A stretch of DNA of 64,000 nucleotides from Candidatus Woesearchaeota archaeon (GCA_047602745.1 JBLKOJ010000004.1:5183-69182), one strand, 5' to 3'; counted from the stretch's first letter, positions 9,264-16,997 are shown. Numbers and translations are program-made. The notes: generated from the letters alone by a model not told the origin.

Positions 9264-10004
9264 ATGATAGAAAAATTTATAGAATTCGAATTAAAAAATA
9301 ACAAATTATTTCCAGTATTTATTTATACATTTTTTATATCATCAACATTAGCATTTTTAGCAATTTATTTTAGTATTTCTATGTATCTACTATTTATATT
9401 AATTGCACTTGCTATTGGTTATCCTATTACAAAATTTATTGAGAAAAGTGAAGCAGAGGAATTTATTCACAAATTTAATGAAAAACAACTTCTAAAAAGA
9501 CATTCTCGTGAACTACTCGCTCTTTGGACAATCTTTGGAGCATTTGTTTTAGCCTTTTTTGTGATATTTTCATTTATGCCCTTAAACCAAGTAAATACGT
9601 TTCAAATAGGAATTAGTGGAATTGAAGGAGACGTTGCTTTTCTTCCAAATCTTCTCAATAATTTAGGGATATTTTTCTTAATCTTTATTTTATGTATGAT
9701 TAGTATTGCAGCAATTGTATTTGTTATTCAGTGGAGTGCTATGCTTGTTGCTCAAAGTTTAGTTGTTATTGGGGATTTAGTTCCTACATTAATAAGTGCG
9801 TTATTTATTCTCTCTTCTTCTTTATTACTTGTAGGAGGATATGTACTTGCAGGATTTGCAGGAGTACTATTATCTTTAAGATTTGATATACATGAGAGAA
9901 CATTTAAATCAAAGTATATGGGACAAATTCAAAAAGATGTATTTACATTATTAGGAGTTGGACTCTTACTTGTAGTAGTAGGAGTATTATTACAATTATT
10001 TTAA
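9264..10004 (+). CDS. Multi-pass membrane protein (possibly SpoIIM/DUF95-like)
   Basis: 246 aa with ~6 hydrophobic helices. Family assignment is only an impression. Confidence 0.45.
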   Translation: MIEKFIEFELKNNKLFPVFIYTFFISSTLAFLAIYFSISMYLLFILIALAIGYPITKFIEKSEAEEFIHKFNEKQLLKRHSRELLALWTIFGAFVLAFFVIFSFMPLNQVNTFQIGISGIEGDVAFLPNLLNNLGIFFLIFILCMISIAAIVFVIQWSAMLVAQSLVVIGDLVPTLISALFILSSSLLLVGGYVLAGFAGVLLSLRFDIHERTFKSKYMGQIQKDVFTLLGVGLLLVVVGVLLQLF

Positions 10005-12643
10005 AGAAAATTCTCAATTTTATTTTTATAATCATTTTTTGATTCTGGTCTTGAATAAAATGGAAATCCAACTAACTTAAAGTTTTCTCTCTCAATTTTT
10101 AAAATTGATTTATCAAAATCATCATCACTTAAATTTACTAAAAAATTCTCTTTCCATAAGTCAGACTGAGTTAAATGACTTCCTTTAATTTCAAAAAAAC
10201 ATTGGTATGTTATATTGGAATTAGATTTTTTCACAAAAAGTAAAAAGTCAGGTTGAAACCCATTACCAGTTTCAAAATCGTATACTTTATACACTTCTTC
10301 ATTTCTTAAAAAATAAATTTCATCAAATCCTTTTTGTTTTAGAATTGGAAGCATACTATCATTAAAAAATTTAGTAAACTCTTCTTCTAATTTATTTCCA
10401 TAAAACTTATCTAAAACATACCAATTTTTACTAACTAATTGCTCACTTACTCTTTGAAGCTCAATTTCCCTATCAATATCAATTGATTTATATTTTGGAG
10501 TTGAAAACTCATCTTTAATTTTTGAAAAAGTTAATTTTGTACCTTTATATGGATTATGATATTCTTTTATCTTTGATTCAAATTTTTTAAAAAAACTCTC
10601 AAAAGAATTATAAATTTGTTTAGTAGTTATCATGCTATTTGATGATATTGTAATATATTGTTCTCCGAAAATATCATCTTTAAAAATATCATCTATTGAT
10701 GAAATTTCCAAATATTCTTTTAAATTTTCAAACGTATAAAAATTTGAATTTAATTTTGAAAATACTTTTAATATTACGTGTTTATTATCTTTAAATTTAA
10801 AATCAAGAGAATTTAAACTTTCATCACTATCTGTATTTATTACTTGGTCACTTCCAAATATTTCCTTTTCCTCAGTTATCTGAGAATTAAATGTATATAT
10901 TCTATTAATTTCAGATAAAATTTCCATAATATTTTTCTTTCTCTTATTTGGATTTTCTATTCTTTGATTAATTGCAATTTTATAATTTTTATAAAATGAT
11001 GATTTTTTACGAATTTCATCTTTAATATGAAAACTTCTAGTAATAGTTTTAGGTGTGATTAAACCTTTATTTTTCAATTTATTTTTTAAGTCAGTAATAT
11101 AACTACTTTGATATGTACTATGAAAATGAAACTCCTCTAAAATTCTCAACTCATTTGATTTATCCATATCAAATTTACGCATATATGGGATAGTATCTTT
11201 GTATGAAAAAGGAAAATATCTTACTCCTCTTCCTATAAGTTGAACTTCTGAGACAGTTGATGAACCTGATTTACCTTTATTTGCACCACCTGTATTTTGT
11301 TCATTATATAATCTTACAATATCATATAAATTAAGTACATCCCACCCTTCTTCTAATTTTTTAACAGTAAATATAGCTCTAATAGGATTATATATTTCTT
11401 CAAGTGAATTTAATAATTCATCAATATCTTTTGTAGTTTCCTCTTGTGTTGTTTTAGTATTATCTTTTGAATTTGTAATTATACAATATTTCTCCTGAAA
11501 ATTATTTTGTAAAGAATTAATAATTTGTTGAATTGGTATTGATTTAGATTTAATATAATTTTTAATGGTATCTAATACAGAGATACTATTTAAATCGTCT
11601 AATTCCAAATTATCATCTTCAAAAGATTTCCCTATAAAGTCTAAATCACTAATACATAAATTTGAAATTAATTCTTTAAATTCTTAAAAATCTTTTCTTG
11701 ATTCTTCAATAGTTTTGCTTTTAAATAATATAACAGGTTTTAGATTAATATTATTGTTATTTGCAATTTGTTCTCTGTACCAATTAAATAATAAAGCAGT
11801 TAAAATTCTTGTCTTTTTATCAAAAGAAGCATATAACAAATTAACTTCTTTGGTAAATCCTCTATTTCTAAATTCTTTAAGGTCTAAATCTATAATTTTT
11901 TTATCACCATACTTTTCTTGAACAGACTGCTCATTTGGAACTGTTGCAGTAAATTCAAGTAATACATTTTCATTTTGAAATGAATTATGTAATATTTTTT
12001 TAATAATTAGATACTCCTAACTCTTTTCATCTTCTAATTCAGATTTATTAAGTTTTTTTGTAGAAGCATTTAAATGATGACACTCATCTGAAATCATTAC
12101 TACTTTTTGCTTTGTTAAATTTTCAAGTGTATTAGTATTCTCTCTTGGTTCTTCAATTGATTTTTGAAGTCCTTGAATTGTTGAAAATTGAATTTGAATA
12201 TCATCACTCATTTCATTAAATGAAGTTACTTGTTTAACTCTAACTTTTCTACCATTAATAAGAGTTGATTGTTTAAATAAATATTTTGAAGACGTTGAGT
12301 TACATAAATTATCAATTGTTTTTGAAACTAAATTTTTTTGATTTACAAAAAATAAAAAATTTCTATAACCTTTTTCATAATAGTATAATATTAAACACGC
12401 CATTAATAAAGTCTTTCCAGCACCAGTTGCTAAGTTAAAAAGAAGATGAGTAGGTATTTTTTTAATTTGTTGAATTGCAGGATTGAGTGTATCTTCATTA
12501 TAATATATAAAACGTTTTAATGTTTCTTCTTGATAGTCTCTTAGAGGGAATCGAATATTATTAATTATATTCTCAGAGATTTTCTGATTTTGTAGAAGTC
12601 CCATTATAGATACATTTTTTAATAATTCATTGAGATTATTCAT
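10001..12643 (-). pseudogene. res: Type III restriction enzyme Res subunit (SF2 DEAH helicase + PD-(D/E)xK nuclease), one 881-codon frame interrupted by two in-frame stops
   Basis: NLATGAGKT, DECHH, TAT (LLEFTATVPNE, own translation of the gap), QLIGRGVRY, QPDFLLFV...FEIKG. TAG at 12017-12019 and TAA at 11684-11686 are in frame (2643 nt = 881 codons). Confidence 0.8.
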
Positions 12644-13470
12644 TTTTCTACTACCTTCTTTTTATTTGTTTGATTAAAATAATTATCTTGCGATACTACT
12701 TTTTGCTTAGTCTCTTTTTGTAATTCAAGTCTTGCATTTTTTGCAATATCTCCTCCTTTTTTAGCATCTGCATTTAAATGCTCAAACCCTCTTGAATCAT
12801 TTACTTGGGTAATCTCAGTTGTTGCCCTCTCTCCTAATATTGAAAAAATTAATTCTAAATCAGTCATATGGTCTCTTAAATTTGCTTTTGTTTTTGTAGG
12901 GAAATTTTTAATATTTTTATGTTCATTAATTGATACTTCAAATGTTGCTTTATGAATTTCATTAGTTAAAATTGCAAAATCCTTTGGATTTTCAATTCCT
13001 CTATTTTTCCATTCATCAGTTAACTCTTGTCGTATTGCTATACCTCTTAATCGCTTATCAATCCAATCTTTTGGATATCCTTTTAATTCATAATATTCTT
13101 TTACTCTATCTTGTGCTAATTCAGGATTTTCAATTTCATTTATTCTGTCTTCTCCTAATTGTGCTAACCACATCTTAAAAGGTTCTGCTTTTAATGATGG
13201 TACTGATTGAATAAGTCTAAATGCTCCTTTTGTAGATACACAATTGATTTTTTGTACTCCTCCTTGTGTTTCAATTGAAAGGGGGGTGGCAATTTGCCCC
13301 CACCCTTGTGCAAAACTCTCATCTCTTCTTCTCATATCTTTAAGATAACTTGCAGGATTTTTACTATTAGTTAATACTTCGATGATATCTACTGCAACAT
13401 ACCACCATTCATCATTAAACCAAGTCCTTCTAATTCTTTTATCTTCAAAAACAATAATTTTAGAGTTCAT
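12640..13470 (-). CDS. Bro-N / prophage-antirepressor-like protein (often annotated DinD-like) embedded between mod and res
   Basis: 276 aa. IRRTWFNDEWWYVAVDIIEVLT, PSLKAEPFKMWLAQLGEDRINEIENPELA, KGYPKDWIDKRLRGIAIRQELTDEWKNRG, FAILTNEIHKA, NLRDHMTDLEL. 4-nt overlaps with both neighbours. Confidence 0.7.
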   Translation of the reverse strand: MNSKIIVFEDKRIRRTWFNDEWWYVAVDIIEVLTNSKNPASYLKDMRRRDESFAQGWGQIATPLSIETQGGVQKINCVSTKGAFRLIQSVPSLKAEPFKMWLAQLGEDRINEIENPELAQDRVKEYYELKGYPKDWIDKRLRGIAIRQELTDEWKNRGIENPKDFAILTNEIHKATFEVSINEHKNIKNFPTKTKANLRDHMTDLELIFSILGERATTEITQVNDSRGFEHLNADAKKGGDIAKNARLELQKETKQKVVSQDNYFNQTNKKKVVEK

Positions 13471-15465
13471 TTTTTATTATAAAAATCTTTATTTAATTCA
13501 ATATCTTCTTGTGAAATATTGTATTTACTATCTTCAATTTCTGTTAAATTAACATACATTTGATTTTTATCTAACATTTCAAGACACGATTCTTGTTGTT
13601 CTTGTAAAGAGAGTTGTTTAAATTTTTCTTGTGTAGTTTTTTCTTTAAATTCTTTAATATCGAGATTATAGTTTAAAAAATAATGATGATATAATTCATT
13701 AAATAATGTTAATAGTTCTTCACTTGATTGTGCTTGGAGAATTTTTTCTTTTGCTTCTTCATTATACTTTTTAAGCTCAAAGTAAATAAATTCTCCTCCT
13801 CCTTTCCATTCAACTGCTTTTGAAATTCCAGTTGTATCTCTTTGAATAACATTATTTAATCTTGTTAAGGATAAATCAACTTGATTTTGAATTTGCTCAA
13901 CTCCAATATATTGTCTATTCATTTTATGAGCCACAGCAGCAGTAGTTCCACTTCCAAGATGATAATCAAGAACAATATCTCCCTCTTCTGTTGCTAGTTC
14001 CAAAATTCTTTTAATAAGTTTTTCAGGTTTTTTTTCCATTTTTTAAAGTTATATTTCCTTCTCCTGCAATACCATCCCAACTGATATCTTTCCAAAAATC
14101 ACTTAAAATTTCACTAGGGACTAACTGATTATCTATAATTCTAAGTTTATTTTTTAAGAAAGTAATTGACCTCCCCTTATGAAAATACATATCATCATAA
14201 TTTTCTCTTTTAAGAATATGGATTTGTGAATCTAATTTTGATCTTTCCATATATTCTAAAACTTTTCCTGATGGTTTGTGTACATCCCTAAAACTAATAA
14301 TAGAGTCAGTATTTTTTAAAGAATAAGATTTTAAGAAAATATCTCTATGTTCTTTCCAGCTTTCTCCTAATTCATTTTTTGCTTCTTTCCAATCTTCAAA
14401 ATTAAATTCATCTAAAAATATTTGGTTCAAAGAGATAAATTCCCAATTTTCGGGGCTATCATCAATATTTATTATTTTATAATCATAATTATCTATCCTT
14501 TCAGCTTCTATAAATACTGAATTCATTAATTCTTTGGTTCTTTTTTTACCATATATTAATATATATTCTTTTGTTGTAATAGGGCACAAATTTATGGATT
14601 TAAAACCTGCACTTGTAGAACGTTTAACAGCAACATTTTGAACAAAATTTCTCTCAAATATTTCATCCATTAAAACTTTAAGATATGCTTGTTCATTATC
14701 ATCACATTGGACAGAAATTACTCCATCTTCTCTTAGTAGTTCTTTTGCAATTTCTAATCTGTTTTTCATAAATGTAAGCCAAGTTGAGTGATTAAATCTA
14801 TCGTTGTATCCAAAACTATCACTTCCAGTATTGTAAGGAGGGTCAATGTAGATGAGTTTTACTTTTCCTGCAAATTCTTGTTTTAATGAGTGTAGAGCTA
14901 ATAAATTATTTCCTTTAATAATTAAATTATCTCTAATTAATCCAGTTTCATCTCTATTAAATTGAGTTACTCTCTCTTCCCCTTTTTTAGTAAATTTCTT
15001 AAAATTAGTCAATATTTTATTATCAAATAATCTATCAATCTCATCAGGTGCTAAAATTTCATTATAAAAAATTTCTTTTCGTTTACTCTCTTCTTTATCT
15101 TGTCCACCCTTTAAAACACAATCTTTAAATGGAAAATTTAAAACTACGTGAGATTGCTCGTGAAGATATGTGTTTCCCACTGCTAAACCAATTTTGTTTC
15201 TAAATTTAGTTGAAGAATTTGATAAAAAGTGTTTATCTGAAATAAAATCTAAAAATTTATTTAATTCAAATATATATACATCTTTAATTTTTTTAAAAAA
15301 ATGAGATTTTAAAGTTTCTTCTTGAATTAATAATTCTATTAACTCTTCATCAATTTGTAAAGCTCTCTCTTTAATTTTATTTTTTAATAACTCATCTTTT
15401 TCATCTAAGAATTTAGAATTTGACTTTAATGTAGAAATTAGTTTAGTTTCAAATGATTCACTCAT
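13467..15465 (-). pseudogene. mod: Type III (beta-class) DNA N6-adenine/N4-cytosine methyltransferase Mod, split into 480-aa and 190-aa frames at an A8 tract
   Basis: Motif IV IYIDPPYNTGSD in the N part, KKPEKLIKRIL and motif I DYHLGSGTTAAVA in the C part. 1999 nt, so removing one A gives a 666-codon frame. Confidence 0.8.
14028..14035 (-). repeat. Homopolymeric A8 tract (coding strand) at the mod frameshift point
   Basis: Coding strand AAT GGA AAA AAA ACC TGA versus overlapping ATG GAA AAA AAA CCT GAA. A7 would read NGKKPEKLIKRIL. Confidence 0.85.
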
Positions 15466-15495: not shown

Positions 15496-15569
15496 TTTAT
15501 TTCTTATTATCAGTAGAAAAGTAATTGAACTCTTCTTAGGATAGATTTAGTTGTTAGAATTAAAAAAAG

Positions 15570-15642
15570 TGAGAACTCTCGGACTTGAACCGAGGACACC
15601 CAGATCTTCAGTCTGGTGCTCTACCAGCTGAGCTAAGCTCTC
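15570..15642 (-). tRNA. tRNA-Phe (anticodon GAA)
   Basis: Hand fold of 73 nt: acceptor GAGAGCT/AGTTCTC (one G-U), D stem GCTC/GAGC, anticodon stem CCAGA/TCTGG with loop CTGAAGA, T arm CTCGG-TTCAAGT-CCGAG. Confidence 0.9.
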
Positions 15643-15713: not shown

Positions 15714-16997
15714 TTACTCTTTGAAATATTCACTCCTCTCATCAATTCTTCTAAACTCATCTTGAAATAATCCTGCAACATATGAAGAATTTACAATTAT
15801 TAAATTTTCATCATTAAAATACGCACCACTTCTTGTAGGATTCAAAGACCCAAATGCAACATACTTCGAATCAATAATAAATGTTTTATGATGCATCGTA
15901 GCAGTTGTCATCTCTCTTTTAATACTAAAATTATGCTGTAACTCTGAAATTCTTGAACCTTGTGCATTAATTAAACGCCTATCAACTAAACCTGTAACTT
16001 CAACTCCTTCTTCTAACTTATCTAATAATAGATTTTCAACACTCTCTAAGGTCAATACATACGTTGCAAATTGAATTGATTTTTGTGCTAATTGTAATGT
16101 TTCAACTAATCTATCTTCACATCGTTGATGAGGACAAAAGTATACTTGAAAATCTCCTACAATTTCACCCTCTTTTTTAAGTACATATTTCGTATTAAAA
16201 AACTCCAAAGACTCTTTACTAGCTCCAAAATCTCCTCCTCTCATCTCCTCAAATTCTGTAACTAATTCTTGTGCTAGTACTTCATTATCCTGCACAATAA
16301 ATATCACATTATCATTTCTTTGAAGTCCAAAACGAGTAGGATTTGCAGTACCAAGTAATGAATGTTTCTTATCCACAATACAAAATTTATGATGCATCAA
16401 ATTTTGATATCTAGAATCTCTTAAAGAATCATCAGTTAGTTCAATAGAAGTTCCGCTAAATGCTTCAACAAAAGGTCTGTGAGAATAATCTTCTTCAAAT
16501 ACAATTTTAATATCAATTCCTTCTTCATATTTTTCAAGTAATACGTTAGTTAAACTCTCCTCATTAAAATCTTGAATTGCACAAACAATAGACTCCTGTG
16601 CTTGATTAAAAAATTCAACCCAAGCATCTAAACAAGGAAACCCTTCTACATTACAAAAAATAAATTCGAAGTCATCAACAATAACTTCTCTTGTAGGTAT
16701 TTCTTGAACTTGATTTTCAAATCTCTGTTTAAAAAAATCGTCTCTATTTTCAGTAGTACTACTCACATTAGTAGTTTGAGATTGTGAGAGATATTCAATA
16801 GTTTCAAAATAAGAAGAGGTATTGATAAGTTCAAGTCTCTCAACTACCAATAGTCCTATTAAAAAGACTAATACCAACATTGATAAAAATGGATATCTTC
16901 TTGATAACTTTCTCTTTTCCCTTCGAACACTTCTTTTTACGTTTTTTTTCAATTTTTTTTCCATCTTATTAGAAGTTTTATTTGGGCTATTTAACAT
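15714..16997 (-). CDS. Phospholipase D superfamily protein with two HKD motifs, N-terminal membrane anchor (nuclease or phospholipid enzyme)
   Basis: HHKFCIVDKKHSLLGTANPT and HHKTFIIDSKYVAFGSLNPT. Basic N-terminus followed by TM FLSMLVLVFLIGLLVV. Confidence 0.8.
   Translation of the reverse strand: MLNSPNKTSNKMEKKLKKNVKRSVRREKRKLSRRYPFLSMLVLVFLIGLLVVERLELINTSSYFETIEYLSQSQTTNVSSTTENRDDFFKQRFENQVQEIPTREVIVDDFEFIFCNVEGFPCLDAWVEFFNQAQESIVCAIQDFNEESLTNVLLEKYEEGIDIKIVFEEDYSHRPFVEAFSGTSIELTDDSLRDSRYQNLMHHKFCIVDKKHSLLGTANPTRFGLQRNDNVIFIVQDNEVLAQELVTEFEEMRGGDFGASKESLEFFNTKYVLKKEGEIVGDFQVYFCPHQRCEDRLVETLQLAQKSIQFATYVLTLESVENLLLDKLEEGVEVTGLVDRRLINAQGSRISELQHNFSIKREMTTATMHHKTFIIDSKYVAFGSLNPTRSGAYFNDENLIIVNSSYVAGLFQDEFRRIDERSEYFKE

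Follow-up and report, generated by a model that had tools for sequence, protein, structure and literature searches.

Layout and decay of the Type III operon

The window analysed here is a 64,000-nucleotide (nt) stretch of a Candidatus Woesearchaeota archaeon (GCA_047602745.1, JBLKOJ010000004.1:5183-69182), with a G+C content of about 26%, which sits on a 69.8-kb contig of a 1.09-Mb genome assembled in 56 contigs. On its minus strand it carries a decayed Type III restriction-modification (R-M) operon, made up of a methyltransferase gene (mod) and a restriction gene (res), and between the two lies an intact gene for a 276-residue protein that we assign below to the DinD family. Reading from the 5' side, tRNA-Phe is followed by five collinear open reading frames (ORFs), namely the N- and C-terminal parts of mod, the middle ORF with its Bro-N domain, and the pieces of res (Table 1). 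A preliminary description of the window had proposed just such a Type III mod-res operon with an additional, tightly packed Bro-N gene, and the Pfam matches, motifs and ORF coordinates agree with it. The motifs quoted there (IYIDPPYNTGSD, DYHLGSGTTAAVA, NLATGAGKT, DECHH, TAT, QLIGRGVRY, and PD...EIK) are all present in the translations, and the ORF coordinates give both of the 4-nt overlaps of the middle gene, one with the stop codon of mod (ATGA, positions 13467 to 13470) and one with the start codon of res (positions 12640 to 12643).

The N-terminal part of mod matches the Pfam families TypeIII_RM_meth (PF12564, E 1e-18) and N6_N4_Mtase (PF01555, E 3e-22), and the C-terminal part supplies positions 165 to 218 of the 221 positions of the PF01555 profile (E 3.6e-19); together they give a Type III N-terminal domain followed by a beta-class N6/N4 methyltransferase in which motif IV precedes motif I. 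Residues 4 to 479 of the first part align to residues 2 to 484 of intact homologues of 663 to 666 residues with 57 to 59% identity, residues 3 to 187 of the second part align to residues 481 to 663 of an intact homologue, and the two pieces are thus collinear with intact Mod proteins (49 to 59% identity). Res combines a superfamily 2 (SF2) helicase of the DEAH type with a C-terminal PD-(D/E)xK nuclease motif; its three pieces are collinear with intact Res proteins of 845 to 886 residues and with Res proteins that carry the HI_1054 domain. In the order of mod and res, their tight spacing, the PF12564 and PF01555 domains of Mod, and the ResIII helicase motifs and C-terminal PD-(D/E)xK motif of Res, the locus resembles canonical Type III systems (EcoP15I/EcoP1I type; HI_1054-type Res), from which it differs by the gene at the junction, the frameshifted mod, and two nonsense codons in res. 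The mod and res genes are adjacent in relatives, whereas one gene intervenes in the window.

The TATA-like sequence TTTATAAA, about 26 nt before mod, and the tRNA-Phe gene farther upstream were both found where the preliminary description had placed them. Such sequences are common at 26% G+C, and TTTATAAA is weak evidence for a mod promoter; if it does serve as the promoter, the mRNA would be leaderless.

The reading frames of mod and res are no longer intact. A single extra A in a homopolymer shifts the mod frame by +1, and res contains two different in-frame stop codons. These three lesions are the only visible damage to the two genes, and inactivation of the R-M operon looks recent. A contig from an independent assembly (Logan, SRR28154546) has the identical split of mod into 480 and 190 residues; a homopolymer sequencing error, phase variation, or transcriptional slippage on the A run is formally possible as the source of the split. 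Because the window contains 34 A/T runs of at least 8 nt, the A8 run is no special feature. Recoding of the res stops was ruled out, since a TAG and a TAA are involved and TAA, TAG, and TGA all terminate long ORFs of the window as ordinary stops of the standard code. Elsewhere in the source genome, contig C48 carries a second Type III-like mod gene (C48:16882-17394, locus L106) with an open frame of 660 residues, so that the organism may possess a working Type III methylase.

The preliminary description had taken the middle gene, as the only undamaged gene of the operon, to be under separate selection, an argument that is not statistically compelling. Three lesions in the 4644 bp of mod and res predict 0.54 lesions in the 831 bp of the middle gene, and under equal neutral decay the probability of finding none is about 0.58, so an intact middle gene is expected by chance. 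Selection on it is indicated instead by the conservation of its family, all of whose invariant positions it has kept (see below).

Table 1. Features of the mod-res locus in the window, listed in the direction of transcription
Feature	Position	Strand	Remarks
tRNA-Phe (GAA)	15569-15642	minus	ARAGORN; 103 nt upstream of the mod ATG
TATA-box-like sequence TTTATAAA	15488-15495	minus	centre about 26 nt before the mod ATG
Type III mod, N-terminal part, 480 aa	14023-15465	minus	TypeIII_RM_meth, motif IV (DPPY), target-recognition region; premature TGA past the frameshift
A8 homopolymer, +1 frameshift site splitting mod	14028-14035	minus	one extra A; homologues read ...KKPEKLIKRIL... across it
Type III mod, C-terminal part, 190 aa	13467-14039	minus	motif I, FxGxG-type DYHLGSGTT; +1 frame relative to the N-terminal part
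DinD-family gene, intact, 276 aa	12640-13470	minus	between mod and res
Bro-N domain, residues 13-104	13159-13434	minus	Pfam PF02498
Conserved all-helical C-terminal domain, residues 105-254	12709-13158	minus	shared with E. coli DinD; DdrC C-terminal-like fold
Type III res pseudogene, 881-codon frame	10001-12643	minus	SF2 helicase motifs I, II, III, and VI; C-terminal PD...EIK nuclease motif
res, N-terminal piece, 208 aa	12017-12643	minus	Pfam ResIII, E 3.5e-28
In-frame TAG, codon 209 of res	12017-12019	minus	translation
In-frame TAA, codon 320 of res	11684-11686	minus	translation
res, C-terminal piece, 535 aa	10001-11608	minus	ORF call

Family membership and predicted fold of the middle gene

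The profile search for Bro-N that had been suggested as a check returned PF02498 on the middle ORF with an E value of 9.6e-12, above the gathering score. The entire protein is covered by two further models, the PADLOC model PDLC04920 (PDC-S13; residues 2 to 272, E 5.1e-99) and phrog_15286 (E 3e-73), and no NCBIfam model matches it. More than 8000 homologues are present in the protein database; identity is 63 to 80% for the best of them, and some bear the JGI name "DNA-damage-inducible protein D". Conservation is strong across archaea and bacteria (48 to 80% identity): an alignment of 54 sequences has 50 invariant columns, all of them kept in the window protein, with the most variable stretch lying inside Bro-N and the C-terminal domain almost invariant. 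As judged from its sequence, the middle gene is a member of the DinD family, in which Bro-N is followed by a conserved helical domain. Bro-N is the only domain recognized, and searches of Pfam, PHROGs, NCBIfam, and PDB found no enzymatic or toxic effector domain in the 276 residues.

DinD of Escherichia coli K-12 (PcsA, b3645) has the same architecture of Bro-N (residues 10 to 105, E 1.5e-7) and C-terminal domain and a similar length (274 versus 276 residues), and both proteins fall within PDC-S13. They differ in subfamily: E. coli DinD best fits the sister model PDLC04919 (E 2e-121), matches PDLC04920 only through its C-terminal domain (model positions 130 to 259, E 2.2e-16), and shows no significant BLASTP similarity to the window protein (E 0.44). 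Unlike the window gene, E. coli dinD is a stand-alone gene regulated by LexA. LexA and RecA are both absent from archaea. PMC10602874 and PMC4849656, both citing Uranga et al. 2011, describe DinD as an inhibitor of RecA filaments; damage induction and this inhibition are known for the E. coli protein only. E. coli DinD also matches positions 6 to 267 of a Type I specificity-subunit model, in agreement with a published fusion of dinD and hsdS in Btr190I (PMC4996451) and with the dinD/RhuM gene located between Type I core genes (PMC9881135). The source genome contains a second DinD paralogue of the classical E. coli type on contig C24 (L085:637-1674, minus strand; 345 residues, PDLC04919 E 3e-87, weak Bro-N), which stands alone and adjoins membrane-protein genes.

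PDC stands for "phage defence candidate", and the models of this set were built by Payne, Hughes, Fineran & Jackson from genes embedded in Type I R-M, BREX, or DISARM operons, none of which was tested (10.1101/2024.01.29.577857). The main text of that paper mentions neither Bro-N nor DinD. The window gene is likewise embedded in a multi-gene operon for DNA-targeting defence and matches PDLC04920 over its full length, but no Type III system contributed to the published set, whose sources are Type I R-M, BREX, and DISARM (and Hma), and the host operon in the window is a pair of pseudogenes.

An AlphaFold2 model of the protein, built on 54 homologues with a mean predicted local distance difference test (pLDDT) score of 86, consists of a beta-hairpin and a winged-helix-like Bro-N domain (residues 15 to 89) followed by an all-helical domain (residues 93 to 254). 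In the predicted Bro-N domain, strands at residues 15 to 18 and 21 to 25 are followed by helices at 26 to 34, 39 to 49, and 51 to 60, strands at 61 to 68 and 71 to 78, and a helix at 80 to 89. A Foldseek search of PDB with the full model gave six significant matches, all of which were chains of Deinococcus radiodurans DdrC (E 1e-6 to 4e-5, probability 1.0), with low template modelling scores (TM-scores) of 0.32 to 0.48. DdrC is a flexible, domain-swapped dimer; in view of this flexibility and the low scores, the C-terminal domain was modelled separately (residues 105 to 276, pLDDT 86). The top six PDB matches of this second model were again DdrC (E 1e-3 to 7e-2, TM 0.48 to 0.63, 144 to 155 columns), and the next match had an E value of 0.6 and a TM-score of 0.19.

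DdrC, a damage-induced protein (PDB 7qvb, 7udi, and 8u0g), is thus the only significant structural match of the whole model and of the C-terminal domain alike. Its N-domain is formed by a beta-hairpin and a winged helix and its C-domain by a four-helix bundle, described as having "no known structural homologues" (PMC9303277), and the predicted model of the window protein has the same order of elements, with a hairpin, a winged helix, and a helical bundle. DdrC has no detectable sequence similarity to the window protein; in searches of the PDB sequences, the single protein finds no match, and a profile of the 54 family members finds none at E values up to 10. DdrC binds nicks and double-strand ends specifically (PMC11347143), a property that DinD-family proteins would share by analogy of fold. 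The DdrC papers call the protein a Deinococcus-specific orphan, DinD is mentioned in neither PMC9303277 nor PMC11347143, Bro-N is not mentioned in PMC9303277, and a link between DdrC and DinD would be new to the literature searched. In the D. radiodurans genome used as a control, PDLC04920 has a match at E values up to 1e-3, not at 1e-20, which could be ddrC or another Bro-N gene.

Genomic contexts of homologues and mobility of the gene

The neighbourhoods of homologues were examined by a Pfam scan of 350 neighbouring proteins at 104 homologue loci. The 80 best loci came from species-representative genomes of DPANN archaea, Methanoperedens, candidate-phyla bacteria, and others (48 to 69% identity), and 26 further loci came from relatives of the window genome (12) and from paralogues in two bacterial genomes (14). 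The 147 immediate neighbours included four ResIII matches, two of which are Hef (ERCC4) helicases, and no DNA-methylase family occurred twice among them. The 130 second neighbours included two matches each to N6_Mtase, Eco57I, and ResIII, and the 73 neighbours at the further loci included two ResIII matches and no methylase. Altogether, the 350 neighbours comprise eight ResIII proteins, at least two of which are Hef repair helicases, and two N6_Mtase/Eco57I proteins, and no other DNA-methylase or HsdS family occurs twice among the matches listed. An R-M-like neighbour is therefore found at about one in ten of the 104 loci at most. Among 139 control proteins, encoded more than 6 kb from the DinD gene at the first 80 loci, no R-M or toxin-antitoxin family occurred twice, and after clustering by BLAST the most widespread neighbour family was present at 4 of the 80 loci at most. 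By these counts, accessory genes (PemK, PIN, MNT/HEPN, RhuM, and AIPR) may be mildly enriched around the DinD gene; linkage to R-M is not shown.

None of the five closest relatives (73 to 79% identity by BLASTP) resides in an R-M locus. One adjoins ribosomal-protein and proteasome genes, one is flanked by an aminoacyl-tRNA synthetase region and by a P-type ATPase gene, one is near PolB and GatB, and one belongs to a toxin-antitoxin island. The fifth, which is 79% identical (L098:3542-4375), is located inside an ABC-transporter operon between the ATPase and permease genes, separated from its neighbours by a 6-nt gap on one side and a 4-nt overlap on the other; the same placement with near-zero spacing recurs for a 69% identical DinD-family gene (L001:5905-6738). 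This ABC-transporter operon is the most telling context, because the gene is embedded there in an operon unrelated to defence. Other tight junctions of homologues involve MCM, Hef, GlmS, and a glycosyltransferase, and homologues also stand among housekeeping or replication and repair genes such as those for NrdD, SHMT, and ribosomal proteins. For this subfamily, the outcome that the preliminary description had named as refuting its proposal, homologues that are not enriched inside R-M loci, is thus largely what was observed.

The operon side of the comparison gives a similar picture. In the closest Mod homologues (57 to 59% identity), Res follows Mod directly, as plain mod-res pairs that lack the DinD gene. 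The very closest Mod relative has an ORF for a 135-residue MazF/PemK-like toxin at the mod/res junction (L087:2270-2677), where no antitoxin was called; the junction has thus served as a slot for cargo of different kinds. From these gene arrangements, the DinD gene is not ancestral to this R-M lineage. An orthologue of the window Mod was found in none of 40 related genomes, and DinD-family copies were found in 20 of the 41 genomes searched, at one to four per genome and with a patchy distribution within the genus. The R-M operon looks horizontally acquired, whereas its passenger is a member of a family common among the relatives of the window genome.

Mobility of the gene itself was considered in several forms. 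The DinD family is represented in 4 of 50,697 phage records, all of them short metagenomic fragments, and by 10 full-length matches in 72,556 plasmid records. A phage antirepressor was rejected for this reason, and the label "phage antirepressor" is misleading for a family that is almost absent from phages and rare on plasmids. In one Saprospiraceae genome (G042; loci L121-L132), the family model finds 23 matches, of which at least 14 are full-length, and all are strongly diverged. These copies are 64 to 74% identical in DNA and their similarity stops at the gene borders, which argues for old, maintained paralogues and led us to reject recent transposon-like copying. Some Saprospiraceae copies lie beside Rep3-type plasmid initiator genes. 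In-frame stops occur in 6 of the 80 homologue copies, and related genomes also contain fragments. Integration of an element at tRNA-Phe was rejected, as the 3' end of the tRNA is not duplicated (as an att-like repeat) anywhere in the window, and the repeats found between kb 8 and kb 17 of the window are AT-rich and at chance level. A "tail-cargo-tail" duplication was rejected as well, because the alignment score of the mod tail with the res head equals the mean of shuffled sequences. No inverted repeat of at least 10 nt within 40 nt was found inside the DinD-family gene, no terminal repeats or target duplication were found at its junctions, and no nuclease, integrase, or transposase domain was found in the gene or its neighbours.

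Interpretation of the middle gene

We consider it somewhat better than an even chance that the middle gene is an autonomous DNA-binding gene of the DinD family, an exchangeable passenger of the mod/res junction whose function is independent of the R-M enzyme. The Type III operon would have been acquired horizontally, with the DinD-family gene lodged at a recurrent insertion slot between mod and res, and the operon would later have been inactivated by the frameshift and the two nonsense codons while the passenger stayed intact. Expression would probably proceed from the mod promoter through the 4-nt overlaps. The likeliest activity would be binding of DNA, probably broken or abnormal DNA, by analogy with the binding of nicks and double-strand ends by DdrC. 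E. coli DinD takes RecA off postsynaptic filaments, and the window protein may, by analogy, also modulate the archaeal recombinase RadA. Repair and antiviral defence both remain candidates for the process that this activity would serve.

Several observations weigh against this reading. About 6 to 10 R-M-like neighbours lie near the DinD gene versus at most one or two in the control, and these counts are too small for a real test of R-M enrichment. On plasmid pACLO of Arcobacter cloacae (NZ_CP053834.1), a DinD-like gene of the PDLC04920 type (L095:5995-6891, E 2e-135) lies between cas4 and cas1b in a type I-B CRISPR-Cas operon. Members inside Type I R-M, BREX, or DISARM operons supplied the seeds of the PADLOC models (10.1101/2024.01.29.577857), DinD-HsdS fusions exist (PMC4996451), and E. 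coli DinD itself matches the Type I specificity-subunit model. Given the fusions, the members in defence operons, and the cas4/cas1b case, a functional tie to DNA-cutting systems is conceivable. The relation to DdrC appears in predicted structure only, with moderate TM-scores, and neither 10.1101/2024.01.29.577857 nor the other literature searched contains an experimental test of PDC-S13 or an experiment on any PDLC04920-type protein.

A possible, though not a probable, alternative is that the gene is a stand-alone antiviral defence, which could for instance detect the ends of viral DNA or intermediates of replication, and that it shares only a defence-island slot with the R-M genes. Its status as a phage defence candidate and its patchy distribution, with one to four copies in genomes of roughly 1 Mb, are consistent with such a role, as are the diverged, intact paralogues of the Saprospiraceae genome, of which there are at least 14 with no shared flanks. 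Neighbours of the PemK, PIN, MNT/HEPN, RhuM, and AIPR families are commoner than in the distant-gene control, and the concentration of variability inside Bro-N next to a nearly invariant C-terminal domain would also suit defence. On the other hand, an antiviral role of family members has candidate status only, many copies lie among genes for MCM, Hef, NrdD, SHMT, and ribosomal proteins, no effector domain was found, and E. coli DinD is the product of an SOS gene with an activity directed at RecA and is not known to act in defence.

An improbable alternative is a second-line effector or sensor coupled to the R-M system, which would be guarded by the Type III enzyme or would sense it, and which would act in a PrrC-like manner upon inhibition of the enzyme or on restriction-made breaks. 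The 4-nt overlaps with both R-M genes, the cataloguing of the family as a candidate by its embedding, the DinD-HsdS fusions, and a DdrC-like fold that would suit the recognition of restriction-made ends all speak for this coupling. It is opposed by the dead partner enzyme, by the scarcity of R-M-like neighbours (at about one in ten of the 104 loci at most), by the closest relatives, none of the five being in an R-M locus, and by the nearest mod-res relatives, which do without the gene; the searches of Pfam, PHROGs, NCBIfam, and PDB also gave no enzymatic effector domain. The PrrC anticodon nuclease of Type I hsd loci is likewise nested between R-M subunit genes, but it has an ABC-ATPase and a nuclease domain, and according to the legend of Fig. 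6C in 10.1101/2024.01.29.577857 it is almost exclusively embedded in R-M loci. The window protein has no enzymatic domain, and its relatives live mostly outside R-M loci, so that neither the near-exclusive residence nor the toxic domain of PrrC is found in the DinD-family gene. The guarded effector or sensor of the preliminary description accordingly stands as far as the family had been proposed as a defence candidate for its embedding in defence operons, while a role guarded by R-M is only weakly supported and the analogy with PrrC fails on the effector side, where no toxic or enzymatic domain is detectable.

Very improbable is a selfish or neutral insertion that spreads into operon junctions and borrows their transcription, like free-standing homing-endonuclease genes, without benefit to the host: the presence at junctions of unrelated operons (Type III R-M, ABC transporter, cas4/cas1, and after MCM), the differing contexts of the closest relatives, and the decayed copies would fit it, but neither the gene nor its neighbours encode a nuclease, integrase, or transposase domain, the junctions have no terminal repeats, target duplication, or tail duplication, the paralogues are old and still intact, and purifying conservation across archaea and bacteria is strong (48 to 80% identity, 50 invariant residues).

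A wider reading, which we put forward tentatively and regard as rather unlikely, is that DinD, DdrC, and the PDC-S13 proteins belong to a single ancient superfamily whose members would sense or bind broken DNA, would have been plugged repeatedly into DNA-cutting operons (at the Type III mod/res junction, in Type I HsdS fusions, and at the cas4/cas1 junction) and would also work alone. On this equally tentative proposal, the gene would outlive its host R-M system because the handling of breaks is useful or addictive in itself.

If the plain reading of an autonomous passenger is right, the window adds one more case of an R-M operon with an accessory gene, whose family has already been listed among published candidates. 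The case would then be of value as a caution, as the family is mostly not linked to R-M, occurs also in an ABC-transporter operon and beside genes of replication and repair, and survives in the window beside a dead R-M system; given these contexts and this survival, embedding alone is weak evidence of a defence role. The match to the DdrC fold provides a large and very conserved family, which counts E. coli DinD and thousands of copies from archaea and candidate phyla among its members, with a testable hypothesis, namely that these proteins recognize DNA breaks, nicks, or ends and control the recombinase. If true, the fold match would end the status of DdrC as an orphan found only in Deinococcus.

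Two further observations concern other genes of the source genome. On contig C21, a 6.5-kb contig, an ORF6N-domain gene and a RhuM-family gene are adjacent (L086:782-1297 and 1342-2325) and both match PADLOC PDC-S05, another family known inside Type I R-M operons; no R-M gene lies in the 3.4 kb around the pair. In the window itself, beyond tRNA-Phe, the minus strand encodes a membrane-anchored protein of the phospholipase D (PLD) superfamily with two HKD motifs (positions 15714 to 16997). It matches the PADLOC nuclease models DrmC (E 1e-21) and DpdK (E 4e-12) and could be a Nuc-like nuclease or a lipid enzyme.

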